From a virus (Duplodnaviria > Caudoviricetes), in IMG/VR virus record IMGVR_UViG_3300033489_000054, positions 1 through 24,409 of that record: a stretch of DNA of 24,409 nt; one strand, 5' to 3'. The notes below the pieces were generated by a model. It saw nothing but the letters and a program-made list of their open reading frames with translations, was not told the origin of the DNA and ran no database searches. How positions within the stretch are numbered: position 1 is the first letter of the stretch; every line of letters starts with the position of its first letter. Positions 6,399 to 24,261 of this stretch are shown here, one piece after another. The position numbers and the translations under genes are program-made.

Positions 6399-6552
6399 TT
6401 ATACTCCCCTTATAGTAATAGTATCGTACAGGCGTAAAGTAATCACATAATCCCACATATCTACATATATCACAGTTCCCTATGCATGGAAGTGGCTCTT
6501 CTGCATCATATATTTTATTAATTATAGAAACTCTAGTTGCTCTCCCTATCAT
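6391..6552 (-). CDS. small Cys-cluster protein (53 aa)
   Basis: MIGRATRV...CIGNCDICRYVGLC...; TAATG coupling with the sigma gene. Confidence 0.5.
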   Translation of the reverse strand: MIGRATRVSIINKIYDAEEPLPCIGNCDICRYVGLCDYFTPVRYYYYKGSINA

Positions 6553-7292
6553 TAATACTCTCCTGTCGGTTCTACCGACTCTGCTAGCAAAGCTAGCTTC
6601 AATATCTTTATAATCTTTTGTAACAATTGAGATATCCTAGACTCCTGTAAATTTAAAAATAAACCAATCTGACGCATAGGTAATTCTTCATAAAAGTAAA
6701 GACAGAAAATAACCCTCTCTCGTTCTGGAAGTGCGTAGATATTTTCAATTAAATTGTTTATAAATTCTTTTGATAACAACAAGTTATCTGGAATATAAAA
6801 CGAGTCCTGTTCTAAATCAACAGTAGGCACACCTTCTTCACAAGGATTGTCTACACTATCTTCCTGTATCTGCCTAGTCTCTAAAACATAATCATAATAC
6901 TTTTCTAAAGGTACTTGTAATTTCTCAGCTATCTCAACGAAGGTGCTCTCTCTTCCTAACTCGTGCTCCAGATAAGATATTGCTTGTTCTACCTTCTTTA
7001 CTTTAGTTCTGTTACTTCTGGAAAGGTGGTCCTCTGATCTGAAGAAATCCAGAATAGCTCCGTATACTTTCCTCCTAGCGTAAGTAGACAACTTAGTTCC
7101 AAAGGTAGTCTTATAGTTATCGACAGCATTGATTAAACCTATAGTACCAATAGAGATTAAATCTTCGTTATCTGAGATGGTATTAAATCTCTTTCGTATT
7201 TTAAACACAATTATATGAACAATATATAAATGCTTTAGAATAAGCTGTTCCCTAATCTGTTTGAATGTATATTTTATGATATCTCTTTTGAT
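6552..7292 (-). CDS. RNA polymerase sigma factor, FliA/WhiG (sigma-28)-like
   Basis: EDLISIGTIGLINAVDNY, TYA....GAILDFFR.ED.LSRS.R, region 4 LYFYEEL...IG..L...ESRISQ. Frame is open upstream of GTG 7208 through REQLILKHLYIV; start at 7292 (ATC) is inferred. Confidence 0.9.
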   Translation of the reverse strand: MKRDIIKYTFKQIREQLILKHLYIVHIIVFKIRKRFNTISDNEDLISIGTIGLINAVDNYKTTFGTKLSTYARRKVYGAILDFFRSEDHLSRSNRTKVKKVEQAISYLEHELGRESTFVEIAEKLQVPLEKYYDYVLETRQIQEDSVDNPCEEGVPTVDLEQDSFYIPDNLLLSKEFINNLIENIYALPERERVIFCLYFYEELPMRQIGLFLNLQESRISQLLQKIIKILKLALLAESVEPTGEY

Positions 7293-9900: not shown

Positions 9901-9937
9901 AATCCCCTAATGTTGCTAATAGTATAGTGGATAGATT

Positions 9938-10688: not shown

Positions 10689-10714
10689 ATTTAAGTTATT
10701 TTAAATTATAAGAC

Positions 10715-10743
10715 ATTATACACTATTTTTACAATTAAGTCAA
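10715..10743 (-). promoter_or_regulatory. sigma70-type promoter
   Basis: TTGACT-17 nt-TATAAT on the - strand, in the intergenic gap upstream of ORF 10603. Confidence 0.85.
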
Positions 10744-10922: not shown

Positions 10923-11029
10923 TCTTCTTTCTTCTTTAGTGGTAGAGGATTAGTAAAACATTGAGCACACAATCCTTCTTCACCAATAAAATATATAAAA
11001 TCTTCTGCTCCACAACGGTCACATTTCAT
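10919..11029 (-). CDS. micro zinc-ribbon protein (36 aa)
   Basis: MKCDRCG...LCAQC; ATGA overlap with the polymerase stop. Confidence 0.55.
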   Translation of the reverse strand: MKCDRCGAEDFIYFIGEEGLCAQCFTNPLPLKKKEE

Positions 11030-11757
11030 ATCTTTAATTTCTCCATTTTATCCCACGTTAATCCTGCTTTAGCTTCCCCATTCATCGGAGTGATCCAGTT
11101 GTATCCCCAATAGTTTTGCACGAGTGCGGGGATTTCTCTAAACACACCTATACAAATTGTAGCAACCTCCTCTATTAGTCTTTCAGGCATATCTAAGATA
11201 ATACTATCGTGAACTTGATTTATAAACTTTACACTGGGAGTCTCAAAGTAACCTTGTGCTCTTAATCTCCTAAAGATTACTACCATACAAAGAGGCATTA
11301 TATCGGCAGTAGCAGTACCTTGTACCATATAGTTACTTACCTGTGGTCTGGAGTATCCCCAAGCACCTTCTTTATCTACATATTTATTAAAAACATATTC
11401 TCTTCCTGTGAAAGATTTAAGTAGACCTGTAGAACAAACCTCTCTATAGTTTGCGTTCTGCCATTTACCTAAACCTTGGTACTTATCATAGAACTCCTCC
11501 TCAATTGCTAACCATCGTTTTAATCCTAATCTTGGCATACGATAGTCTAAATGAAAACCGTAAGCACTTCCAGAATAGAGGAATCTGAAGGAAATAATTT
11601 TTGCTTCTTGTCTAAACTTAGCATCACCAAACAGATTGATAGCATTGTTGGTGTGCATATCAATCCCGTCTACAATTTCTTGAATCATAATAAGATCACG
11701 AGATAATTCAGCCCCTACGCGCCACTCTAAAGCACTCAAATCACAGTCTAGTAATAT
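11026..11757 (-). CDS. DNA polymerase family A, C-terminal (palm/fingers) subunit
   Basis: Motif A LLDCDLSALEWR, motif B RQEAKIISFRFLY, NYMVQGTA, motif C QVHDS. Start extended from TTG 11739 to ATA 11757 so the motif A Asp is included. Confidence 0.92.
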   Translation of the reverse strand: MLLDCDLSALEWRVGAELSRDLIMIQEIVDGIDMHTNNAINLFGDAKFRQEAKIISFRFLYSGSAYGFHLDYRMPRLGLKRWLAIEEEFYDKYQGLGKWQNANYREVCSTGLLKSFTGREYVFNKYVDKEGAWGYSRPQVSNYMVQGTATADIMPLCMVVIFRRLRAQGYFETPSVKFINQVHDSIILDMPERLIEEVATICIGVFREIPALVQNYWGYNWITPMNGEAKAGLTWDKMEKLKI

Positions 11758-11778
11758 TAGTTATACCTCCTTTCTGAG

Positions 11779-11883
11779 TTATATTAAGTTCCCTGTACAT
11801 ACAGCATAAACTATTACAACAATAAACCATATTACGAAACCACCACAGATTGCTATACCTGCTGCTAAAGCCCACTCTTTCAT
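11779..11883 (-). CDS. micro membrane protein (34 aa)
   Basis: MKEWALAAGIAICGGFVIWFIVVIVYAVCTGNLI; SD GAGGA, ATGA overlap. Confidence 0.55.
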   Translation of the reverse strand: MKEWALAAGIAICGGFVIWFIVVIVYAVCTGNLI

Positions 11884-12023
11884 CTGTCGTCCTCATCTTC
11901 GTTATAAACTAAATATTTATCCTCACCTATAATAGCGAACCAATCATCTAAACATTCTCTACACCAATCTTGAAACGAATCGTAGTGTAAACATTTACTA
12001 TCACTTTCATAAAAAGTACACAT
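11880..12023 (-). CDS. small acidic Cys-containing protein (47 aa)
   Basis: SD TAAGGAG; MCTFYESDSKC...WCREC... Confidence 0.55.
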   Translation of the reverse strand: MCTFYESDSKCLHYDSFQDWCRECLDDWFAIIGEDKYLVYNEDEDDR

Positions 12024-12075
12024 AGGCAATCTCCTTATAGTCAATTTCAGATTTAACTACGTTAAAAGTAACCTC

Positions 12076-12333
12076 CTAGAAAAACATCGAGTCTTTCCAC
12101 TCTTCTAATTTACCACATGAATCATATTCTTTTTTCATTATTGAGTAGTTTTTAAATATCTCTACTGCCTCTTCTTTATAAACTAAAATCATATCTTCTG
12201 GAATACTACATACACTATGTATAATTACAAGAGGTGCTTTACATAATACTACTGATTTTTGTGGCACATCCTCTGCCCTAGTTATATAGACACTTAACAA
12301 AATTATGCAGACAATCAAAAAGAATCTTAGCAT
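12076..12333 (-). CDS. exported or membrane-anchored hypothetical protein
   Basis: MLRFFLIVCIILLSVYITRAE signal-like N-terminus; SD GGAGGT. Confidence 0.6.
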   Translation of the reverse strand: MLRFFLIVCIILLSVYITRAEDVPQKSVVLCKAPLVIIHSVCSIPEDMILVYKEEAVEIFKNYSIMKKEYDSCGKLEEWKDSMFF

Positions 12334-12337
12334 TAAT

Positions 12338-12895
12338 TTAACCTCCAAATACTATATCGCTTATTGGTACTGGGTAATAATCTGTAAGTTCTACAGATAC
12401 ACAGTACGTATTCTTGTTAAGGTGCTTACCTAGTGAATGAGTATGACCGTGAATAAAGAACTTCTCCGGTTCCCGACCAGCAACAGCAGGATCATGAACA
12501 AGAGTAACCCTATCACTATAAAATTCAAACTCTAAAGGAATAAGCAAAGAAGTATGAACAGATAAGAAACCAGCCTCAAGATAATCAAATGGTTTAAGAT
12601 GATCGTGATTACCTAGAATCAAATGATGAGTGCCATTAAGACCTTCAACAATATTAGAAAGCTGCTGCCAAGACTTAGCCCCCGGTCCATAAGCAAAATC
12701 TCCAAGATGATAAGTAACATCGTCAGGAGATACGACTTCATTAAACCTTTTCTTTAATACTTTGTGCATCTCATCTGTAGTTCTAAACCTACGCATAGCA
12801 GGTGCTTCGATAGGCGTACCATCATGTACGCCATAAGACCTGTGCATAAGCATGTTATGATGATAGTAATGGCAGTCTGCGGTGAACCAGATCAT
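12338..12895 (-). CDS. calcineurin-like metallophosphoesterase
   Basis: WFTADCH, YHLGDF, LGNHD, VHDP, HGHTH. Confidence 0.9.
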   Translation of the reverse strand: MIWFTADCHYYHHNMLMHRSYGVHDGTPIEAPAMRRFRTTDEMHKVLKKRFNEVVSPDDVTYHLGDFAYGPGAKSWQQLSNIVEGLNGTHHLILGNHDHLKPFDYLEAGFLSVHTSLLIPLEFEFYSDRVTLVHDPAVAGREPEKFFIHGHTHSLGKHLNKNTYCVSVELTDYYPVPISDIVFGG

Positions 12896-13128
12896 AGCAT
12901 ATTTCCTAACTTAGTTGTTTTAATAAGTCTACGTACTTTCCATTCTAAATCCAGCGCAAAGTGCTGCTTATTTCCGTAATCGAAGCTATTAAACCCTACA
13001 GAGGTATCACACATGTGCCACGAACTTTGATTCCTAACATTCCACTCATCCCCGTCCTGTATAACATCATCATCTTTCAAATAATAAAAGCTAGCTTTGC
13101 TAACCCTGTCTTGCTCTGCAAGATTCAT
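12892..13128 (-). CDS. small protein, DDD-GD family, TKLGN tail
   Basis: YYLKDDDVIQDGDEW...WKVRR..KTTKLGNML; start re-placed at ATG 13128 (SD AAGGAG). Confidence 0.7.
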   Translation of the reverse strand: MNLAEQDRVSKASFYYLKDDDVIQDGDEWNVRNQSSWHMCDTSVGFNSFDYGNKQHFALDLEWKVRRLIKTTKLGNML

Positions 13129-13130
13129 AG

Positions 13131-13568
13131 TTACTCCTTGATAGTAAATGATATATGAATAGGTTTTAAACAAGTCCTACTACAGCGATCCCCTACTGCT
13201 TTAGCCTCTTCGCTGGTATAATGGATATCACAACCTATAAAATAACCGCCGCGAGTATCTGCGAACACATTAACCCAACCCTCAACTTGTTTAGTTGTTC
13301 CCATCACATCTCGAAATGCTGCATCAATACCTGCCATGCTAGGTTTCAAAATAACTTGTTCTACTTCCAAATTTAGCTTCTGGCTGGTCTTTTTAGGTTT
13401 AGGGGTATCCTTACCTATCTTTCTTCCCCACTCGGCTTCATGCGCTCGTACAGCCTCCATTTCTTTTTTAGTCCTACGCACCCTTTTAACTTTAGGCGGG
13501 TATGCTGGGTCAAGGTCTGTGAAGATTAGTTTTCCTTTTATTTGTCTTTTAATCGAGTGTGTTTCCAA
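13131..13568 (-). CDS. hypothetical protein
   Basis: TTG start after SD AAGGAG; basic RVRRTKKEMEA segment and a EGWVNVF module. Confidence 0.7.
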   Translation of the reverse strand: METHSIKRQIKGKLIFTDLDPAYPPKVKRVRRTKKEMEAVRAHEAEWGRKIGKDTPKPKKTSQKLNLEVEQVILKPSMAGIDAAFRDVMGTTKQVEGWVNVFADTRGGYFIGCDIHYTSEEAKAVGDRCSRTCLKPIHISFTIKE

Positions 13569-13776
13569 GGGGGGTTCTCCTTTGTTTTTTAGATATTCCC
13601 AAAAGTCCGTTTAGATAGCTTTCAATATCTGCATAATTAATATTAAAAGATAGTGGGGGAGAAGCTGGTGTTGCTGTATACATAGTTTGATACCAATCTG
13701 AGGTGGTGTAGTGTGGTGCGGGTTGTATAAAATCTCTCCAGCTAAAGATGGGGTCTGAGGGAGACGCATTTGGCAT
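13549..13776 (-). CDS. hypothetical protein with TPLGNTLD tail
   Basis: ATG 13776 after SD AAAGGAG. Confidence 0.55.
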   Translation of the reverse strand: MPNASPSDPIFSWRDFIQPAPHYTTSDWYQTMYTATPASPPLSFNINYADIESYLNGLLGISKKQRRTPLGNTLD

Positions 13777-13785
13777 TTCTTTTCT

Positions 13786-13975
13786 CCTTTCATTTTTTCG
13801 CATCTGAAAAATGCTCATACAGAGGGCAGCATGAGTGATACTCAATCACGAGTGAAAGGTTATTCTGAAAGAATAACTATCGTTAAAGCTGCCCGATAAG
13901 CTTAATATTAGGGGTTGGTTCTAAAAACCAACCCATATATTAATTAAGTATTAATGGGTCGGCTTGTTCCGACCC
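13786..13975 (-). other. structured non-coding region (multiple inverted repeats)
   Basis: Five perfect stems within ~150 nt; see findings. Confidence 0.6.
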
Positions 13976-14028
13976 TATAATATATAACATAATAACATAT
14001 TTTTAGATTAATTACCAGCTTTATAATA

Positions 14029-14601
14029 TTATAATTTATTAATCTCCCATTTAGACAGGGATTCGAAAGTCTTCTTGAAATATTGTTTAGCTGCTGTGTG
14101 GTATATAATAATTCCTTCAGGGTTCATAAAACCTGGGGATGCTACTGAACCAAGTTCTTTTAACATATTAAAAACTAAGTCTATCTTTTCTGTAGAAAAA
14201 TCTCCTTTGTATAATTGAGGTACTGCATGACAACACGGGGGTCGTAATCCTCCTCCATCATTCCAACGAGCGACATTAAACAGAGAGAATCTTTTATGAT
14301 CTAATCCATACTTCCTGCCGATCTTAGAACCCCACCATTCCCCAAAGTGAGAACCGGGTCCAAGTTCAAGCAATCCTTCTACATTTGAGTAAGCCCAAGC
14401 TGCAAATCCAGCATTATCATTTTCTGGAAATATCCATCTGGTTCTACTACCACATAGAAAAGGAACAACCCTGCCTGACTTAAGAGTAATTGGGCTACAA
14501 TTCTCTGCTATATAAATCTGAGCATTCGTCCCATCAATCTTTTCAGTGATGATACATTCTTTAGATAATCTAGGTATTTTACCAAAACCAATAAATTCCA
14601 T
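14029..14601 (-). CDS. RNA ligase (adenylyltransferase domain only)
   Basis: TEKIDGTN (motif I), GSR, FGEW, FSLFN, PEGIII, FKK. Confidence 0.85.
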   Translation of the reverse strand: MEFIGFGKIPRLSKECIITEKIDGTNAQIYIAENCSPITLKSGRVVPFLCGSRTRWIFPENDNAGFAAWAYSNVEGLLELGPGSHFGEWWGSKIGRKYGLDHKRFSLFNVARWNDGGGLRPPCCHAVPQLYKGDFSTEKIDLVFNMLKELGSVASPGFMNPEGIIIYHTAAKQYFKKTFESLSKWEINKL

Positions 14602-14742
14602 TTATTTTTTCTCCTTGTTTAATCTTATTCTAGGACGCAAACCAAAAGCCAATGAACCACAGAAAGGGCATCTCGTTGTTGACGCAGTGCAATCTATAGT
14701 ATATTCTACTCTACCACAAACCCCACAAGTATGACTAAACAT
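14602..14742 (-). CDS. small zinc-ribbon protein (46 aa)
   Basis: SD GAGGAG; MFSHTCGVCG...RCPFCGS... Confidence 0.6.
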   Translation of the reverse strand: MFSHTCGVCGRVEYTIDCTASTTRCPFCGSLAFGLRPRIRLNKEKK

Positions 14743-14784
14743 ATTTAGGTTTCTCCTCACATCTTCGATGTGTCTAGCAAGTTT

Positions 14785-15981
14785 CTACTTGCTCGTTATA
14801 AACACACTTTTAACTCCAGTATCACTATCCCTTGGTATCTGGTGCAATCTACTACAAGTTAATCTACCTGTTACTGTTGCTGTCTGGTTATACTGTGGGT
14901 GAAAGACCCCTTCTATAGACTCTTCTATGAAAGGTTTGAAGTATGTTCCACTTAACTTCTCCATAGAAGATATTTCACTAAGCAATTCTAGGAATCTTTT
15001 CTGTGCTTTACCTTTAGGTACTAGCTGTTCCATCTGCGCCTTATCTGTTTGATAGAATCCCGCTTTCTTTGTCTCTGTTTTCTTACCCGGCTTAAATCCT
15101 AAACCTTTTGTCTCTATCTTTAACTTAGCATTACGTTCACCATACTTAATTGTACCATCCTTTAAGACTCTCTCTGTAGTTTCCTTTCCATCATAGATCA
15201 GATCACCACCAAACAGTATAGTGGATAGATGATCCCCACTTGTCCATTTAATAGGAATATTATACAACTCTGGTAACACATCCTCTATAAACATTGTCAA
15301 CTCTACTTCAAGTTCTTTCTTCTTCTCTAAGCATTCATCTAATCTTGTCTTACAAAGATCAACATCTACCTTCATTCCGTTCCATTCCATCTCTTCTATA
15401 ACAGATACTAATTCAGATTGCAGTCTTACTAACTTCTGCATCCCTTTAGCTTCAATACGTGGCTGTTGCAACTCGTATAGCTCCATAGTATTTATTATAT
15501 CTCTCTTCATGTATGGCATAAGGATTGGCAAAGGAATCTCATCTGTCTCATAGCCAGCTAACCAATAAGGCTTAACTTTATCATCTTTAGGTACAGCAAG
15601 ATATTGTTCTGACAAATCTTCAAGAGACAAGTCACCATACTTCTTAGTCTGACCTGAAAGAAGATACTCTGCTATCATAGTATCATATATCTTAATATTA
15701 GGTTTGAGTATAATGCCACAGTGTCTTAACCAATGTAAGTCAAAGCATATATTGTGTCCTATAATCTCATCAGCCCAATCAAATAAAGATTGTACTTCTT
15801 TTTTATCAAAAGTAGATTCAGAATCATTATGGTTTATAATCCATTCATGATAAGAGCCGTAAGTATCTTCTGGAGTTTCATCTTGAAGATATATACCTAA
15901 TGATACAGCAAAGGAACCTTTAATCCAAGGTAAGTGTCTAGGTTTCTTACTCGTCTCATAATCAAAGCAAAGTGTATTCAT
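14785..15981 (-). CDS. DNA polymerase family A, N-terminal (3'-5' exonuclease + thumb) subunit
   Basis: ExoI FDYET, ExoII GHNICFD, DTM, ExoIII YMKRD, EWNG..VD, NQTATVTGRLTCS.LHQIPR; stops just before motif A. Confidence 0.92.
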   Translation of the reverse strand: MNTLCFDYETSKKPRHLPWIKGSFAVSLGIYLQDETPEDTYGSYHEWIINHNDSESTFDKKEVQSLFDWADEIIGHNICFDLHWLRHCGIILKPNIKIYDTMIAEYLLSGQTKKYGDLSLEDLSEQYLAVPKDDKVKPYWLAGYETDEIPLPILMPYMKRDIINTMELYELQQPRIEAKGMQKLVRLQSELVSVIEEMEWNGMKVDVDLCKTRLDECLEKKKELEVELTMFIEDVLPELYNIPIKWTSGDHLSTILFGGDLIYDGKETTERVLKDGTIKYGERNAKLKIETKGLGFKPGKKTETKKAGFYQTDKAQMEQLVPKGKAQKRFLELLSEISSMEKLSGTYFKPFIEESIEGVFHPQYNQTATVTGRLTCSRLHQIPRDSDTGVKSVFITSK

Positions 15982-15992
15982 ATAGTATTACC

Positions 15993-16169
15993 TCATCTTG
16001 TTCTTAAATTATCAGCATAACAAGCAGATATAAATTCTACTATATTAAAGTTATAGTTTTCAGTCATAAAATAAGAACTTAATTTCTCTATAAGTCTTGC
16101 TTTATCTTCTTTTTCAAGCCTGGTTTCTTGTATAACTTCTGCTATACCAATATGATGTTTTCTAGTCAT
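15993..16169 (-). CDS. hypothetical protein (58 aa)
   Basis: MTRKHHIGIAEVI...ENYNFNIVEFISAC; ATGA overlap; not in the ORF track. Confidence 0.65.
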   Translation of the reverse strand: MTRKHHIGIAEVIQETRLEKEDKARLIEKLSSYFMTENYNFNIVEFISACYADNLRTR

Positions 16170-16408
16170 AGTTCGTTTCCTTTAGGTGTGAGGTTAGGTA
16201 AATTCTGATATAAGTGATATAAGGTATCCCAGTATTCCCTACCTTGAGGTTGTTCAGACCAAGTAAATAAATAAGTTATTGCTTGATCTTCGTCATAAGC
16301 ATTGTAATCTTGTATAATTCCAGCATTATATTGTTGTTGCACATAATCTGCTGCTTTAGAATCTAATCTACGTAATTTAGCTATGATTTTATCTATTGGT
16401 TTCCTCAT
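16166..16408 (-). CDS. hypothetical protein with TPKGNEL tail
   Basis: F.W...PQG.EYW motif; ATGA overlaps on both sides. Confidence 0.7.
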   Translation of the reverse strand: MRKPIDKIIAKLRRLDSKAADYVQQQYNAGIIQDYNAYDEDQAITYLFTWSEQPQGREYWDTLYHLYQNLPNLTPKGNEL

Positions 16409-17640
16409 AAGTCACTAAACCTTCCCGTTGCAGGGTTAAATTTAATTGCATACTTCCCATTCCTACCAACTAACTTATTCTTTGGTATATTAATGTATCT
16501 GATACCGTCCTCTTCACTACCAAGAGTCCTACCTAAACCAATAATAAAATCCATCTCTTTAGGTTTACCTGTCTTAGAATTATCTAGCATGTGCATCTCT
16601 AACCATTTCTTACCTGCTGCTTCTGCTGATGCTTGACCGACAGTTAAACCAATCAAACCAAACTCATCCACAAGTTGTCTGTACAAATAGTACAACTGTC
16701 CTAATCTATTTGGTCCTTCATACTTACTATCTCCTGAGAAAGATACTTTATCTCCCGAATCTATGACAATAAGTTTAGGTTTGTACTCAAAACAAATATT
16801 TCTTATTTGCTTTATATCATGAACTTGTCCAACAAATTTAATCCTATCACCACCACGCTCACTAAACTTTTTTAGTGCTACATCTTTGTATTGAACAATA
16901 CGATCAAGAGGTTCGTTTAACATAGCAGAATACAAACGTAATTTAATACGCCCAACATTCTCTTCGTTACCAAACCAAATTATATCTTGTTCACTGTTGT
17001 CATACTCTAACTGCTCTGCCATAAAAGCTAGTTCTGAGCATAACCACGAAGTTTTCCCTGAGTCTGTGCGAGCAAACATATGCCCTAAATATCCGGGGCG
17101 CAGCGCGCCAATATCATCATTAAGACAAGACAATCTCCAATGCAATCCCTCACCAGTAACATGTGATTCTAGCAAGTCTTCAAGAGGAGTATCTTCAAAA
17201 GGTGTGTCTTGATTTTCTTTTGTTACTAGCTTAAGATAAGATTGTAAATCTCCCTCTATAGAAGAGAGAACACCAAACTTATTTTCAGATAACACAGGCA
17301 GAAGTTTTTGAACAATCTTATTGCAGGTATCTTTCTCTAAAAGATTTTTTATAACCTCCCCCATTAAAGAATCTGATACATCTACTTCATAAATTTGTTT
17401 AGTTAACTCAAGAATAATCTCCTTATCTTTTAGTGTGTTATGGTGCAACAAAAAGAAATTAATATACTCATCTTGACTTATATAATTATGTGTTGGTATT
17501 GTTTCATAATACTTTTCTATAGTCTTATATATTATAACGAACTCTTTGTCAAGAATTAAGTTTGTCATAATGTGACTATACTTTATATAATTATCTTTAT
17601 CCTTCAAAAATAATTTAAGTATAAGTATTTCTGGTGTCAT
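16405..17640 (-). CDS. DnaB/SF4 replicative helicase
   Basis: Walker A ARTDSGKT, NEE, Walker B IVIDS, Q...EA, S..GK...D.IIG, KNK. Confidence 0.9.
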   Translation of the reverse strand: MTPEILILKLFLKDKDNYIKYSHIMTNLILDKEFVIIYKTIEKYYETIPTHNYISQDEYINFFLLHHNTLKDKEIILELTKQIYEVDVSDSLMGEVIKNLLEKDTCNKIVQKLLPVLSENKFGVLSSIEGDLQSYLKLVTKENQDTPFEDTPLEDLLESHVTGEGLHWRLSCLNDDIGALRPGYLGHMFARTDSGKTSWLCSELAFMAEQLEYDNSEQDIIWFGNEENVGRIKLRLYSAMLNEPLDRIVQYKDVALKKFSERGGDRIKFVGQVHDIKQIRNICFEYKPKLIVIDSGDKVSFSGDSKYEGPNRLGQLYYLYRQLVDEFGLIGLTVGQASAEAAGKKWLEMHMLDNSKTGKPKEMDFIIGLGRTLGSEEDGIRYINIPKNKLVGRNGKYAIKFNPATGRFSDL

Positions 17641-17852
17641 ATATGATTTCCTAATTTAGTTATTTTAAGTTGTCTTCGTACTTTATAAAATCCAGAGTAA
17701 TCTAAACCATCTGCTATTGTTTTACCTACAGATGAACGACACCGTATATACCCCAGACCACCCCTACTATCCGTAAATGTATCCCCCTCTTGTATAATAT
17801 CTGTATCGGTTAGATAGTAATATGCAGCATTTGTTAACAGATCGTTTATCAT
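17637..17852 (-). CDS. small protein, DDD-GD family, TKLGN tail
   Basis: YYYLTDTDIIQEGD...SVG...KVRR..KITKLGNHI. Confidence 0.7.
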   Translation of the reverse strand: MINDLLTNAAYYYLTDTDIIQEGDTFTDSRGGLGYIRCRSSVGKTIADGLDYSGFYKVRRQLKITKLGNHI

Positions 17853-18106
17853 AATTGATTCCCCAATTTAGTGCGTGTAATTAACTTCACTAGTTTAGAA
17901 CAAGGAACATGCCAACCACGTCTTTCGTCATATTTTCTTGTACTAGGTACTTCATGATGATGTATTTCCCAACCCCCATCACAACTATCATCAATAACAA
18001 CTATAACAGTATATCCTTCGTGTACTATAATAGTCCCTTGTGCTTCTAAACCATCATGATTAAACTTTACTTTTGTACCGATAGGCCATTTCTCTGGATT
18101 AGTCAT
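17849..18106 (-). CDS. small SH3/KOW-like protein, TKLGN tail
   Basis: IGTKVKF...GTII...; ends RTKLGNQL. Confidence 0.7.
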   Translation of the reverse strand: MTNPEKWPIGTKVKFNHDGLEAQGTIIVHEGYTVIVVIDDSCDGGWEIHHHEVPSTRKYDERRGWHVPCSKLVKLITRTKLGNQL

Positions 18107-18890
18107 CTTTTAAATACTCCTCTAATTGAACGTGAGTTAAAACTTTAGGGTCAAATGGGTGTTGTTTAACTATAAATCGTTTACCTGTTAACTTATTAAA
18201 TCTTATTGCTTGTTTAATTGCAGTCTCTCTTTTATCATAATCAAGATAAATTATTATATTTTCGTAATCCCTAAACTCGTTTAGGATCGTTGTTGGGAAG
18301 TATGAACCTAAAAGAGCAAGACTATTGTGTGTTCTGCCCACACGTATTGCTGAAAGAATATCCTCTACTACAACAAGATAACTAGGATGGTATAGTGGAT
18401 ACTTTATCTTAAAGAATACATTCTTAGCTCCACTTTGTCTTATGTTTAAATACTTTGGGTTATCTTTTGTATAAGGTAACTTGAGACTTCTCCCTTGCCT
18501 GTAGATTAAATCTGCGTTATCATATACAGGTAATATTAATCTGTGATATTGTTCTGAATAACAAATACCATATTTCTGTATCTCATCATCTGTTATATAA
18601 TACCTATACAACCAACTTAATCCGATTGGTGGTATCTCTGGTGTAGCATCTCGTGGAAGATAGATTTGCCCCACCGTCTGCTCGGTTGATAATTCATTCT
18701 GCCTGATGGTGTGTGTAACATTGCTAATAGTTTCTCTCGGTGTGCTACATCCAGATGAGATAAACCCTCGTCCGGCATAACAATCGTTATTATGGCAATG
18801 CCTTATATAACCACCTGACACTTTCTTAATATATAATCTACTACGTGTATCTCCACACTCAGGACAGTTAATCCTCTCTTCGCTAAACAT
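18099..18890 (-). CDS. DNA primase (zinc finger + TOPRIM)
   Basis: CPEC...HCHNNDC, RLILP, QGR, PKY, VVVED.LSA, YLDYD, DPK. Confidence 0.9.
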   Translation of the reverse strand: MFSEERINCPECGDTRSRLYIKKVSGGYIRHCHNNDCYAGRGFISSGCSTPRETISNVTHTIRQNELSTEQTVGQIYLPRDATPEIPPIGLSWLYRYYITDDEIQKYGICYSEQYHRLILPVYDNADLIYRQGRSLKLPYTKDNPKYLNIRQSGAKNVFFKIKYPLYHPSYLVVVEDILSAIRVGRTHNSLALLGSYFPTTILNEFRDYENIIIYLDYDKRETAIKQAIRFNKLTGKRFIVKQHPFDPKVLTHVQLEEYLKDD

Positions 18891-18899
18891 ATTTAGTCC

Positions 18900-19109
18900 T
18901 TAAATTGTATTCCCTAGTTTAGTTTTAGTTATTTTTCTCCTAACTTGCCAACCAGCCTCACAATATGCCTGTTGATCCCATGTTTTAGGGGTGTATCCTA
19001 CACATACAGAATTATCCTGTATACGATACCAAGATTTATTATTGGTAATAATCCACTCATCGCCAGCGTTAATAATATCATCATCTTTTAATATATAATA
19101 TGCAATCAT
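18900..19109 (-). CDS. small protein, DDD-GD family, TKLGN tail
   Basis: YYILKDDDIINAGDEW...CVG...WQVRR..TKTKLGNTI. Confidence 0.7.
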   Translation of the reverse strand: MIAYYILKDDDIINAGDEWIITNNKSWYRIQDNSVCVGYTPKTWDQQAYCEAGWQVRRKITKTKLGNTI

Positions 19110-19378
19110 AGTGTATTACCTAACTTAGTTTGGGCCTTCTGTAATTCATCTATGTGAAAATTATATACACGTTTACCCCTACATAAAGCACGTAACTTAG
19201 GGTTTGTAGTCCTTGGTAGTGTCCAATTTTCCCATCTCCACCAACACACACCATCATTATCCTCAAGCTGTAACACAGTGTATACATTAGGGTAGTCTTC
19301 ACTATTAAACAATCCAACTACGTTACCCACTACTCTACCTCGATATCTTACTAGTTCCCCTTCAAAGAAAGATTTCAT
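19106..19378 (-). CDS. small SH3/KOW-like protein, TKLGN tail
   Basis: FEGELVRY...GNVVG; ends QTKLGNTL. Confidence 0.7.
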   Translation of the reverse strand: MKSFFEGELVRYRGRVVGNVVGLFNSEDYPNVYTVLQLEDNDGVCWWRWENWTLPRTTNPKLRALCRGKRVYNFHIDELQKAQTKLGNTL

Positions 19379-19560
19379 ATATAATCACTCTCTGTTAAGT
19401 TAGTCCAATCTAAAGTGTTAGTATCTTTCTGATATTGACCAAGAGCATAGGCATCTTTATCAAATACAGTTCGTATCGACACCTGACAGGTGTCACAATA
19501 ACCCCTAATCATTTCACTACTCTTTTGTAAATCTGAATCACAAGCTACACATTTAGGCAT
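19375..19560 (-). CDS. small zinc-finger protein
   Basis: CVACD...YCDTC; SD AAGGAG. Confidence 0.65.
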   Translation of the reverse strand: MPKCVACDSDLQKSSEMIRGYCDTCQVSIRTVFDKDAYALGQYQKDTNTLDWTNLTESDYI

Positions 19561-19761
19561 TATTCTTCTCCTTCAAAAGTCTATAAATATCTTGTAATTT
19601 AGTACATATAAAGCCTAGCAAACCAATAATCACCATCACTGAAAGTATTGCTTGATCTTCATTCACTTACATATTCTCCTTTGTTGAAAGACATTCAGAA
19701 GGAATGTCTGTGGTATAGTGGATATCTTCTCTGAAGATATCTTTAGATACTTTAGATAGAC

Positions 19762-20700
19762 TTAATTGACAGATACTACCTTATCTTCTATATCCTCTTC
19801 TTCTACAATCTTTTTCTCTACTTCAAGACAACGAGCACAATCATCACAAAGTACTGCATTTTCTGTACTCTCTAAGATATAGTAATAATCTACACCCTCT
19901 TCGGTATATCTAATACCACAACAATCACAAATAACGCTTGTCTTATAACAATCTGTACATAAAGTTTTACCTCCAATAATTTTCATATCTGCATACACAT
20001 CATACTCAGTACAACAATCACATATAACCCAACGCCTATCACTTATAATAGGATCACTAAGAGATTTATGTTTATTATTATGTTCTTTGTAGTAGTTTCC
20101 TTTAAGCCAAGGACTCATATCATAATCATCTTTATGTACAATCATTGGCACATATTTTTTATATGTATTATTAGAATACCAGTTACCGTCTACAACAACC
20201 CCCTTGTCCTTATTATAAATAATAACACCTTTAGTTCTATGAAGCAAAGCAATCTTAGATGCCCCTATAAAATCCTCAATCATAAGATTAATTATTTCAT
20301 TGTCTTCCCAATCAGCGGGAAGCTGAGACAACCAATCTTCTGCAAATACTTTAGTGTCTGATCTAGTATCCTTCTTATCTATATCTATATTATACATAGT
20401 TCCATTATGAATAATAACCCTATCTTCATCCACAATAAAAGGATGGCAATTATCTAATGTTACATTTCCTTTAGATGCTATCCTAAAATGAATTAAGAAA
20501 TCAGATGTATCACCATAATCTTTAACTGCATTTCGGTACACATCTATAAACCCTTCGTAAGTTAAAGATTTATGTACAAAGAAATCTCCTTCATTAGTTA
20601 TACAAACAAAACCCGCACCGTGATCGTTGTTTAACCAGCCATTATGTAAATGCTCCTCTGAAATAGATACACCTTTTGGCTTAACGATTGCAAGACACAT
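19762..20700 (-). CDS. class II (Ntn) glutamine amidotransferase with C-terminal zinc ribbons
   Basis: Start re-placed at ATG 20700 (SD GAGGAGG), giving N-terminal Met-Cys; N.HG.G, HFR.A..G....NCHPF, HNG, SDT motifs; four C-terminal CxxC. Confidence 0.9.
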   Translation of the reverse strand: MCLAIVKPKGVSISEEHLHNGWLNNDHGAGFVCITNEGDFFVHKSLTYEGFIDVYRNAVKDYGDTSDFLIHFRIASKGNVTLDNCHPFIVDEDRVIIHNGTMYNIDIDKKDTRSDTKVFAEDWLSQLPADWEDNEIINLMIEDFIGASKIALLHRTKGVIIYNKDKGVVVDGNWYSNNTYKKYVPMIVHKDDYDMSPWLKGNYYKEHNNKHKSLSDPIISDRRWVICDCCTEYDVYADMKIIGGKTLCTDCYKTSVICDCCGIRYTEEGVDYYYILESTENAVLCDDCARCLEVEKKIVEEEDIEDKVVSVN

Positions 20701-20701
20701 A

Positions 20702-22336
20702 TTAATCCTCCTCTCCATTATCATTAGTATTTTCTGCAATGTCTACCCGCATTTCGTTGTAACAGATATGATGATAGTAGGTATTGCCGTAAAGCCAATC
20801 CTCATTTTCAGGAATGTCTTCACCACACCGAGCACATATATAATACGAATCAGGATCACATGGCGAAGAACAACAAGCCTCTTCGGTATCAACTTCAGCA
20901 TACATTGTGACTATTTCTGAATTAGTTCTAAAGGTAGCGTATTTGTCACCCCTCTTCAACATAAAATTATACAGATAAGGATAAGCAATACTGTGTTTAT
21001 ATATATAAGTTTCAAACTCCATGTAATCAAAGTGTAATTTTACATCTCGTGTGTAGTTATACAGCGCATCTACAAACTCCACATTCTTTAAAAGCATCCC
21101 TGTATTAGAAGGACTCCAGAAAAAACGTAGTTCAATAGTATTGCTTGTAAAATTAATCATTTCATAACGATCTCGGTTATAATTCTTTTTATAATTCTTT
21201 GCTACTCTTGTCGCTTTTCCATTATTGGAGTAAGCTTTACACCAGTCGCTTTGTAGTGGTCGCTCTGCTACCCACTCCATGTATTCAATATTTGTTCTAA
21301 CAAACTTACAAAACTTATATACGTGAAGGGGGGAAACAAAGGCTGTTTTGTTTATGTGTATGTGACCACCAATACCATAAGTAACTGGTTTAATTACATT
21401 ATCAAACAATTTATCCCATGAAGTATGCCTAAACATATTTAGTGTTAAAGGATGTGTAACAATTTCAGAACCGGGGTCACAAATAGTGCCATCATGCTTT
21501 GCATATATTACTTCATGCTCGTGTCCATCATTTAGTTCTAAGATTTTACCTAAAACTACATTAACATGCTTTTTTTCATAAAACACTGCCTCTATTTCTG
21601 TACCCATATAGAGTACGTTATTTAATGGCGCACTAAGTACAGTATATTTTTCTTTTTTGAAATCATAATCCATAAAATTAAATATCTTAGGTTTATAAGT
21701 ATAAGTTAACTCTGCCCCTAAGTTAATGTCTGTACCATAACAATCTGCACAACTATCTAAATGTTTATTGCCACCATGATAATCTGTAAAATCAACAACA
21801 CCAAGTCTTCTTGTTACCTTATGTTCTTGTTCACATATCTGACAATAACTATCTTTATACACACAATTATTACAGAAGTACTCTCCCTCAAAGATATGTT
21901 CTGCACATAGTCTACCACAGTTAGCACATATTTTCAAATCATCTTTGCAAGTTAAACAATATTCAAAATTAGTTTGATCGAATTGCGTAACTGATTTTAT
22001 ACCATTGCAATGTTTACATTTAAATTTGTGTATATTAATCCATGAGATACCTTCTGGGGGTGGTGGGAACTGCTCATTATATTTCCATATTGCAAAGAGG
22101 AAATATTTTAAGTTCTTTCTCGGGATTTCTACAAAGTCGTTGTCAAATTCTGTATCAGAACCTTGTAAAAACAACACATTAGGGGTGTCGTTATCCCACT
22201 CAGGGCGTAGAGAAGATTTTAATCTAATCTGTGTGCCTCCTACATCAAGTGTAAAATCAATAAGTGTAGTATTTTTAATCTTTATTTTAATAATATCTCT
22301 ACTACTCTGTGCATCGAAAATAAGTTTAATTGACAT
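20702..22336 (-). CDS. amidoligase (COOH-NH2 ligase, glutamine-synthetase-like fold) with zinc ribbons
   Basis: GTEIE, KHDGT, EIVTHP, GGHIHI, RY..IN, TIELR motifs; multiple N-terminal CxxC; adjacent to a class II GATase. Confidence 0.85.
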   Translation of the reverse strand: MSIKLIFDAQSSRDIIKIKIKNTTLIDFTLDVGGTQIRLKSSLRPEWDNDTPNVLFLQGSDTEFDNDFVEIPRKNLKYFLFAIWKYNEQFPPPPEGISWINIHKFKCKHCNGIKSVTQFDQTNFEYCLTCKDDLKICANCGRLCAEHIFEGEYFCNNCVYKDSYCQICEQEHKVTRRLGVVDFTDYHGGNKHLDSCADCYGTDINLGAELTYTYKPKIFNFMDYDFKKEKYTVLSAPLNNVLYMGTEIEAVFYEKKHVNVVLGKILELNDGHEHEVIYAKHDGTICDPGSEIVTHPLTLNMFRHTSWDKLFDNVIKPVTYGIGGHIHINKTAFVSPLHVYKFCKFVRTNIEYMEWVAERPLQSDWCKAYSNNGKATRVAKNYKKNYNRDRYEMINFTSNTIELRFFWSPSNTGMLLKNVEFVDALYNYTRDVKLHFDYMEFETYIYKHSIAYPYLYNFMLKRGDKYATFRTNSEIVTMYAEVDTEEACCSSPCDPDSYYICARCGEDIPENEDWLYGNTYYHHICYNEMRVDIAENTNDNGEED

Positions 22337-22493
22337 AGGTATACCCCACAATTATATTTAACTCCTTAACAATTTTCCACGTATCGTTAGCACCATTTTG
22401 CATAACATACTTAAGAGCATCTTCTGCGGTAGGAAATTCTTGTAAACTCCACTGTCCATAAGAACAATAAACTAACAAATATACTTTTTCCAT
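22326..22493 (-). CDS. hypothetical protein (55 aa)
   Basis: SD AGGGAGG; MEKVYLLVYC...FPTAEDALKY. Confidence 0.6.
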   Translation of the reverse strand: MEKVYLLVYCSYGQWSLQEFPTAEDALKYVMQNGANDTWKIVKELNIIVGYTYVN

Positions 22494-22554
22494 TAATTTT
22501 AATCCTCCCTAAGTTAGCAATAACTTCGTTTTACATATATTCAGTATGATTATT

Positions 22555-22815
22555 TTAAATAGTGTTTCCTTTAGGGGTTGTGCAAGAAAGTAATGCACCT
22601 TCGGGCCAACTCCAACCACATATAGTTACTGTTAATTTATATGCGTCCCTGTTCACAATACTTACACAATCCACAGTTTGAGTCGTACCTAACAATTCTT
22701 TCATTTCGGAAGTTAAAGAATATGGCATATATCTACTTGGATATGTTTTCCATAATTCTTTTTCTGTTTTTATTCTTACTCTCGCACCTTCTTTAATAAA
22801 ATCATAATCAGTCAT
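22555..22815 (-). CDS. small SH3/KOW-like protein with TPKGNTI tail
   Basis: KEGARVRIK...EM..LLG...WSW; SD AGAGGA. Confidence 0.7.
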   Translation of the reverse strand: MTDYDFIKEGARVRIKTEKELWKTYPSRYMPYSLTSEMKELLGTTQTVDCVSIVNRDAYKLTVTICGWSWPEGALLSCTTPKGNTI

Positions 22816-22850
22816 AGCTTATATCCTCTTAAAGTATCCATTATACTGTC

Positions 22851-23334: not shown

Positions 23335-24261
23335 TCACAAACTATCCGAAATACTTTGAGTCAAAACAGAGTCAAAGTATTTAGCAAACTTCTTTATAGG
23401 TAAAGCGGTCAGTTCAGGATCAGTATTAGATTCAAATAAGTTTATCGTACTTTCACACTCACAACCACAATTCAACCCAACATCAATACCAGAGTAATTT
23501 AAACCTAAGACTTTGGTAGCTTTAATACACTCTTCTTTAATTCTCTCTATATCTTTTTTAAATGTTTCCAAACGATACCCTTCAGTATAAATTGGTAAAG
23601 AGGGGAGTTTATCTTCGTTCCAATTAACATCATCCAACCAATGCCACTCTTGGTTTGAAGAGAGTAATTGATCGCCATTGCCTTTCCAGAAGATTGTTGC
23701 CACCTTATCTCCTGTCACATAAACCCTGAACTCGCAGGTCTTTTGTACTATCTTCTGAAAATACCAGTTCTCAGAAACATTATCTCTATTAAGATTTGTT
23801 GCAGTAAATGTCAATAACTCCCCTATATTATTAATAACATGAAATTCTAATTGCCTCGCGTGTTTATGTGGGCGAGCAATGAAAGGAAATGTTACCATAT
23901 CTGAAAGAACATTACTTGAGAAAGGAGTCTTGATATTATTCTCTTGCCATACCTTTCTTGTAGCCCATTTGTTACTACCTATAGCGCATGAAGAAGGTTT
24001 GTTTAAAATTATATTACCTTGATCTAACAGAATATGACAACCCCAATTAATAATTCTGTTATCGTAATTAGATAGCATAGCAAATACTTCATCTTTTGTT
24101 AGTGCTTCGGGTCTGCCAATAGATTCCTTCTCCCATTTAAACCAACTACCTGTTCGTTTGCTTTTATACACAAGCAGGTTATCAACTTCCATCTGTTGTG
24201 ATACACTTCGTAAGATTTCTTTGTTACTCCCCATGAATAAGAATAAGATTATGTTTTTCAT
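23335..24261 (-). CDS. ATP-grasp ligase (RimK/phiEco32-like)
   Basis: IINWG, ILNKP, NK, FPFIARP..H, YFQK, EFRVYV, LGLNYSGID, ExN (FESNTDP). Confidence 0.85.
   Translation of the reverse strand: MKNIILFLFMGSNKEILRSVSQQMEVDNLLVYKSKRTGSWFKWEKESIGRPEALTKDEVFAMLSNYDNRIINWGCHILLDQGNIILNKPSSCAIGSNKWATRKVWQENNIKTPFSSNVLSDMVTFPFIARPHKHARQLEFHVINNIGELLTFTATNLNRDNVSENWYFQKIVQKTCEFRVYVTGDKVATIFWKGNGDQLLSSNQEWHWLDDVNWNEDKLPSLPIYTEGYRLETFKKDIERIKEECIKATKVLGLNYSGIDVGLNCGCECESTINLFESNTDPELTALPIKKFAKYFDSVLTQSISDSL

Follow-up and report, generated by a model that had tools for sequence, protein, structure and literature searches.

A portable C-terminal peptide on small proteins of six sequence types in a Zobellviridae-like phage

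The window analysed here is a 24,409-nucleotide (24.4 kb) stretch of viral DNA (IMG/VR record IMGVR_UViG_3300033489_000054) with 35% GC, which represents about half of a podophage-like genome. The best DNA data set containing it is labelled soil metagenome, and no RNA data set is listed. The phage, which is uncultured, is Zobellviridae-like, its best PolA matches being MEP401 and MEP402 (~31%). Eight small minus-strand open reading frames (ORFs) of the window end in the seven-residue consensus T-[KP]-[LK]-G-N-x-[IL], called the tail below. Judged from sequence, the tail is a real, peptide-selected, portable, and lineage-restricted C-terminal tag on six types of small early-block proteins. As for its function, the explanation tentatively preferred here is that of a docking handle, by which varied binding domains would attach to a single shared partner and form an adaptor panel.

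Occurrence of the tail in the window

All eight ORF ends from which the first-pass annotation had derived the motif were recovered in place on the minus strand. Together with one probable interrupted copy, they are as follows.

12892..13128, minus strand: 78-aa DDD-GD-type ORF ending TKLGNML, ATGA-coupled to the metallophosphoesterase gene
13549..13776, minus strand: ~75-aa orphan ORF ending TPLGNTLD, probable start after AGGAG (frame opens at 13845)
15978..16169, minus strand: probable interrupted ninth tail; 58-aa ORF at 15993-16169 with T-R-stop-G-N-T-I-stop in frame
16166..16408, minus strand: 80-aa F-x-W-x-x-x-P-Q-G-x-x-Y-W-type ORF ending TPKGNEL, ATGA-coupled
17637..17852, minus strand: 71-aa DDD-GD-type ORF ending TKLGNHI, ATGA-coupled to the helicase gene
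17849..18106, minus strand: 85-aa ORF, SH3-like by motif only, ending TKLGNQL, ATGA-coupled
18900..19109, minus strand: 69-aa DDD-GD-type ORF ending TKLGNTI; the next gene (primase) has its own TAAGGA site
19106..19378, minus strand: 90-aa beta-rich ORF ending TKLGNTL, ATGA-coupled
22555..22815, minus strand: 86-aa predicted SH3-fold ORF ending TPKGNTI, no gene coupled

The gene junctions also agree with the earlier description: ATGA coupling was found for the tails at 12892, 16166, 17637, 17849, and 19106, while TAAGGA and a separate ATG come after the 18900 tail and no gene is coupled at 22555. In the six-frame translation of the window T[KP][LK]GN occurs eight times, always within 3 residues of a stop codon. 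The ORF end at 11779 (CTGNLI), once proposed as a weak member, lacks T-[KP]-[LK] and was rejected. The tail at 13549 may be under additional downstream constraint, because it overlaps a possible TTG start of the ORF at 13131-13568.

Regarding the proteins in front of the tail, the claim of at least three unrelated types holds, but phmmer searches with the tail removed raise the count to six sequence types, since only the three DDD-GD paralogues (12892, 17637, and 18900) are then linked (E 1e-4 to 1e-12). The other five tailed proteins are unlinked, with E-values of 0.02 or worse. Pfam and PHROGs provide a name for none of the eight; the 16166 ORF has weak PHROG matches (phrog_25460 and phrog_16354), and the 13549 ORF has no match in either collection. 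All tailed genes lie in the block above 11026, where they make up 8 of 18 small ORFs vs 0 of 18 below (Fisher p 0.003, from small-ORF lists drawn up by hand).

The interrupted copy overlaps the ribosome-binding site (RBS) and start of the PolA N-terminal gene (15978-16001). Read-through patterns of the T-R-stop-G-N-T-I type follow none of 3,529 stops in relatives, and these positions probably represent a ninth tail that a stop codon has since broken at its overlap with the PolA RBS. In the literature on shared phage C-terminal motifs, no description of the tail appears in titles or abstract openings (mostly without subscription papers).

Selection on the peptide

Pairwise comparison of the T, G, and N codons across the eight tails gives 35 identical, 49 synonymous, and 0 non-synonymous pairs (84 comparisons), bearing out the synonymous variation reported before. 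The first two positions of these codons are invariant in all eight tails and the third positions vary; the N codon is AAY in every case (P ~8e-4 from the AAY:AAR use of the window). Between families, DNA identity at the T, G, and N codons is 0.77-0.80 vs 0.19-0.52 in the 15 preceding codons, and because it falls to this level before the tail, there is no shared DNA cassette extending upstream. According to these codon patterns, the tail is selected as a peptide and not as DNA.

The opposite reading takes the conserved unit to be a DNA or RNA element, associated with starts or gene boundaries and doubling as an RBS, with the peptide as a by-product. Its starting point is sound: in five of the eight cases the tail overlaps the Shine-Dalgarno (SD) site of an ATGA-coupled gene, as the first-pass annotation had cautioned, and the G codon there always lies on the SD position. 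Tails at three metagenomic loci described below (L022, L038, and L093) are also ATGA- or GTGA-coupled, and G-N-T-I persists behind the stop at 15978-16001. As an explanation of the tail, however, the overlap fails. Coupled ends were compared in 85 related loci. None of their 279 ATGA-coupled ends finishes in G-N-x-[IL], although 187 have an SD-like site; G at -4 is over-represented (14-21%), in keeping with SD geometry, and the product of the six position frequencies is ~1e-6. Among the other XTGA-coupled ends of the window, 0 of 13 have G at -4 or N at -3. Moreover, the motif is in frame in 8/8 cases and never out of frame or intergenic, it varies at synonymous positions, and it is kept at 18900 and 22555 without coupling. 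The start-associated sequence (SAS) of Cluster K mycobacteriophages, in comparison, is a fixed 13-bp DNA consensus before the start codons of unrelated genes (PMC3203893), whereas the window motif varies synonymously and stays in the frame of the upstream gene in all eight instances. The codon and coupled-end tests thus largely refute a DNA element, which is left with hardly any credibility; SD overlap in five genes may ease the origin of the tail, but does not account for it.

Homologues that keep the tail

Searched against 1.84 billion representatives, the 17637 protein yielded 12 matches including itself. Seven of them are single-domain proteins, all tailed, and two are larger untailed proteins with tandem copies (P0009 and P0011); P0006 and P0012 were dropped as repeat-driven false matches. 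A profile search added seven more tailed single-domain DDD-GD proteins, so that 14 of 14 outside single-domain homologues carry the tail. In the resulting set of 17 DDD-GD proteins (3 from the window), T and G are present in 17/17 and N in 16/17. The variable positions are 2 (K/P/E), 3 (L/K), and 7 (L/I/F/Y), and four of the proteins run 1-3 residues past the tail.

A metagenome scan with the DNA pattern of the tail, covering 53 of 64 parts, returned 121 loci, three of which are the window itself and three of which are informative. L022, a close syntenic relative, has an orthologue of the 12892 gene that, over 66 codons, differs synonymously at 15 and non-synonymously at 11; its tail shows a single amino-acid change, at a variable position, and the gene downstream differs from that at 12892. 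L093 encodes a 19106 homologue (38% identical) ending TKLGNEL, so the tail is kept on a second body type. In L038 (1,150 bp; 241-797) two adjacent unrelated genes end NTKLGSLL and NTKLGNLL, and neither L038 gene matches any window protein. L038 may mark a second tailed phage lineage; tblastn of an L038 gene and of 22555 against cultured phages gave no match. The in-frame ends at L023 and L092 look like chance and were set aside.

Two co-sampled contig ends, read by hand, show G-N-T-L and G-N-V-L with the other Asn codon (a weak observation from one sample). At the 17849 tail, a co-sampled relative (loose end at 17859, read by hand) has G-N-T-L-stop; a cultured-phage match of 17849 at E 1 was dismissed. 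Other searches were less productive. Tail DNA patterns found no locus with two tailed ORFs among 38 viral and 63 genome loci, and a tail-weighted profile returned only the query, with nothing in PDB sequences. Searches of viral contigs with the single helicase protein and with the DDD-GD alignment found no close relatives, and a genome scan for such relatives gave two weak partial matches, neither tailed.

The same bodies and loci without the tail

That the tag is portable, as first proposed, is supported by body types that are tailed in the window and untailed in other phages. For the 16166 body, 16 cultured phage records contain weakly similar sequences (E 0.08-0.8), and the five inspected all share a W-x-x-[TS]-x-Q-G pattern, none of them with a tail. 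Untailed homologues of the 15993-16169 body occur in loci L200 and L178, and the tandem DDD-GD repeats of P0009 and P0011 are untailed as well. Given these bodies and the interrupted ninth copy, the tail seems to come and go irrespective of the body that carries it. P0009 and P0011 have no Pfam, PHROG, or NCBIfam name, and DDD-GD is apparently an unnamed repeat domain.

At the level of whole loci, the tail in strict or loose form ends 0 of 1,917 predicted genes in the 80 best viral loci from a helicase alignment (up to 10 kb on each side, many shorter) and none in five annotated relatives. The closest relative, L147 (helicase 40%), has no tailed ORF in 13.8 kb.

Possible functions of the tail

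The convergence of six body types on so few residues argues for one reader, and because the conserved bodies suggest work of their own, a varied binding domain with a constant handle is the likeliest arrangement. The bodies would then be small binding domains, at least one with a predicted SH3 fold, each gripping a different host target, and the constant tail would bring every gripped target to one common reader, in the manner of an adaptor panel. This reader would more likely be a conserved host protein, e.g. a protease or chaperone, than the phage ligase trio discussed below, because the motif is neither carried nor tracked by any of the larger proteins in the window and L038 seems to come from a different phage; the inference covers about half of the genome.

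A bolder version, possible but doubtful, is a modular adaptor library in which unrelated small domains gain and lose the tail and so plug into a single host machine that is retargeted by swapping bodies. Such a library may be likened to eukaryotic F-box or SOCS-box panels and, if real, would be a host-takeover strategy not yet described. Most small phage genes have no assigned function, and a shared selected tail puts six unrelated orphan families in one pathway. As a bait of seven residues, it could let one pull-down name the common partner and give all tailed families a role. With a host protease or chaperone as its reader, it would in addition offer bacterial cell biology a minimal targeting tag.

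Structural models are available for three of the bodies. The ESM Atlas model of 22555 is similar to the SH3 repeats of Mind bomb (PF18346), which bind substrate peptides, with a template-modelling (TM) score of 0.62-0.64, below the naming bar. The AlphaFold2 (AF2) model of 17637 has a predicted local distance difference test score (pLDDT) of 77.8 and shows a small beta domain in which beta-bridges at residues 64 and 70 lie on either side of the motif; Atlas features of this protein scored <0.9. For 19106, AF2 predicts two helices and four strands (pLDDT 73.1) and leaves the tail unstructured, residues 86-90 being at pLDDT <50.

Several points weigh against the docking-handle explanation. The adaptor role of the bodies is drawn from a single sub-threshold fold resemblance, that of 22555, and the two fold searches gave no significant match: the 17637 model resembles no solved fold above Z 2.7, and Foldseek with the 19106 model gives no match at E 0.001 and only weak Tudor/SH3-type rows. 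No partner for the tail was found within the window, about half a genome, in which no protein besides the small ORFs carries the motif. The homologue queries included the tail, which favours tailed matches, and untailed single-domain homologues are therefore under-sampled; L022, L038, and L093 were found with the DNA pattern of the tail itself. The outside homologues are all on short contigs. Finally, TPKGNx[IL] is also the C-terminus of one 300-420-aa protein in each of 8 unrelated viral loci and of a 153-162-aa protein in another 2, and DUF4326, an ATP-grasp protein, and other proteins contain similar internal strings, so that the peptide can apparently be an ordinary turn. The longer proteins form a family of their own (L299:4762-6024, L313:1409-2632, and six similar loci), and the shorter ones a second unnamed family (L301:5536-6024 and L304:4049-4510), each with a single member per locus; the genes next to them in L299 and L301 resemble packaging or head genes.

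SspB-type ClpX adaptors combine a binding domain with a docking tail. Regarding phage-encoded examples, SPO1 Gp53 is an adaptor-like protein for ClpCP (PMC6873191). The window proteins would resemble Gp53 as early phage proteins redirecting a host machine; Gp53, however, is a single 25-kDa protein, whereas the window holds a whole panel, each member 70-90 aa long and ending in the common tail. A precedent for the docking handle comes from T4, where the clamp-binding motifs at the C-termini of gp43, gp55, and gp33 can be exchanged for one another (PMC2988020) and likewise represent a short portable peptide on unrelated phage proteins with a single reader. The T4 motif is hydrophobic and acidic and occurs on three large known proteins, read by the phage clamp. 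The window tail, in contrast, is neutral to basic and occurs on small orphans only; the last 15 residues have a net charge of 0 to +5 in all eight proteins and T, G, and N are invariant, so it does not qualify as a T4-type clamp tail. No sliding clamp was found among 30 window proteins scanned, the window being about half a genome.

As for the alternatives, the tail might be a degron, through which a host AAA+ protease or its adaptor makes early proteins short-lived, the bodies having no adaptor role. The C-terminal degrons of ClpX and FtsH are basic and then hydrophobic, and the tail likewise sits at the extreme C-terminus with a hydrophobic last residue, and is confined to the early block; the last 15 residues, moreover, have a net charge of +3 to +5 in 5/8 tailed proteins. 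On the other hand, 3/8 tails lack a basic patch and the invariant residues T, G, and N are at -7, -4, and -3 rather than in the last two positions. Carboxylate-reading proteases poorly tolerate extra C-terminal residues, yet 4/17 DDD-GD proteins and the 13549 ORF carry 1-3 of them. A degron is thus unlikely. Neither does the tail resemble proteasome-activator tails (HbYX and GQYL), which have tyrosine next to last; position 6 is never Y in the 17 DDD-GD proteins or the eight window tails.

A structural cap, i.e. a T-x-x-G-N turn or hairpin that stabilises small proteins without any partner and recurs with the aid of RBS geometry, would suit the predicted beta-bridges around the 17637 motif as well as the larger proteins of the 10 unrelated viral loci and the strings inside DUF4326 and an ATP-grasp protein. 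Many turn sequences would serve this purpose, however, and six body types share the same residues; in addition, none of the 1,917 genes of the related loci is tailed, and the tail has pLDDT <50 in the 19106 model. This makes a cap rather improbable.

The chance that the tail is a virion-loading signal, bringing diverse counter-defence proteins into the head for injection, is slim. In T4, the capsid targeting sequence is N-terminal and cleaved, while the window tail is C-terminal in 8/8 proteins, and in MEP401 neither scaffold nor capsid proteins terminate in the motif; the window itself contains no head genes, the terminase, portal, and capsid genes lying outside it. The likeness to T-even internal proteins is that both sets consist of varied small proteins with a short portable tag; the highly varied T-even proteins share only the capsid targeting sequence, which directs encapsidation (PMC3012670), and the window tag differs in being C-terminal.

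The first-pass annotation had also suggested a substrate tag for three phage enzymes encoded in the same block as the tailed genes:

23335-24261, minus strand: ATP-grasp
20702-22351, minus strand: probable amidoligase
19762-20703, minus strand: class II GATase

For none of the three is there evidence at present of a part in a tag system. They are very divergent (the best match of the ATP-grasp is 25% over 255 aa), which would allow a change of substrate. The proposed co-occurrence of tail and trio, however, did not materialise. Ligase-module genes are present without the tail in L147, L144, and L142; QDWS535 has the annotated module and MEP401 two of its genes, in both cases untailed. L147 has homologues of the amidoligase (E 2e-17) and GATase (E 1e-37), as well as an ATP-grasp-like gene directly upstream of the primase, which matches that of the window weakly (E 7e-4) and has a sub-threshold Pfam score. 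Since they are present in untailed relatives, the enzymes need no tailed partners. The C-terminal peptide ligases RimK and PafA use substrates with a fixed terminal residue and a free carboxyl. Position 7 of the tail varies instead (L, I, F, Y) and the C-terminus is sometimes extended, by 1-3 residues in 4/17 DDD-GD proteins, which fits a ligase substrate poorly. For these enzymes, PMC10580990, citing Iyer et al. 2009, suggests cell-wall or metabolite modification. A role of the tail as their substrate is very improbable.

The ATP-grasp protein has no match in cultured phages, and a Cys-rich stretch in it replaces the short hairpin that relatives have before the E-x-N motif.

Genomic context and further observations

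Besides the ligase-trio genes, the minus strand encodes a primase, a DnaB-like helicase, and a split PolA, among which the tailed genes are interspersed, as well as an RNA ligase, phosphoesterases, nucleases, and a FliA-like sigma factor. The replication genes are located as follows.

18099-18890, minus strand: primase
16405-17640, minus strand: DnaB-like helicase
14785-15981 and 11026-11739, minus strand: split PolA

The order of the replication module and the split PolA are as in MEP401 (OP830906; PMC10580990), a Zobellviridae-like podophage filed under Zobellviridae; the placement of the window phage comes from these replication genes. Common to both are amidoligase, GATase, primase, helicase, split PolA, SSB-like gene, nucleases, and phosphoesterase, in this order. 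Protein identity to MEP401-type phages is only ~30%, however, and the window has in addition the FliA-like sigma factor, the RNA ligase, and the tailed genes, tails being present in 0/85 related loci. No close cultured relative of the window phage was found.

The PolA halves (11026-15981, minus strand) are ~3 kb apart; between them lie the RNA ligase and a phosphoesterase, together with several small ORFs of which two carry the tail. In L022 additional genes are inserted between the halves. The FliA/WhiG-like sigma factor (6552-7208, minus strand) has an NCBIfam E-value of 3.5e-49, below the cut-off, and is not matched by anything in the 85 related loci. At 10705-10743 on the minus strand there are two overlapping sigma-70-type promoter matches (11/12 and 10/12), upstream of the SSB-like gene and at the border below which there is no tailed gene. 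At 450-1213 on the plus strand, two overlapping membrane/lipoprotein-like ORFs look by eye like a spanin pair, with no NCBIfam hit; such a pair would indicate a host with an outer membrane.

The 13-bp motif GTATARTGGATA[CTG], not seen in L022 or the 85 related loci, has 7 copies in the window vs 0.28 expected. Six are on the plus strand (1221-1233, 9922-9934, 13216-13228, 15216-15228, 18390-18402, and 19713-19725) and one is on the minus strand (22834-22846), where it precedes the tailed gene 22555-22815. Five copies are antisense within the minus-strand block and one precedes the plus-strand ORF at 1281, and the motif is a candidate phage promoter or binding site.

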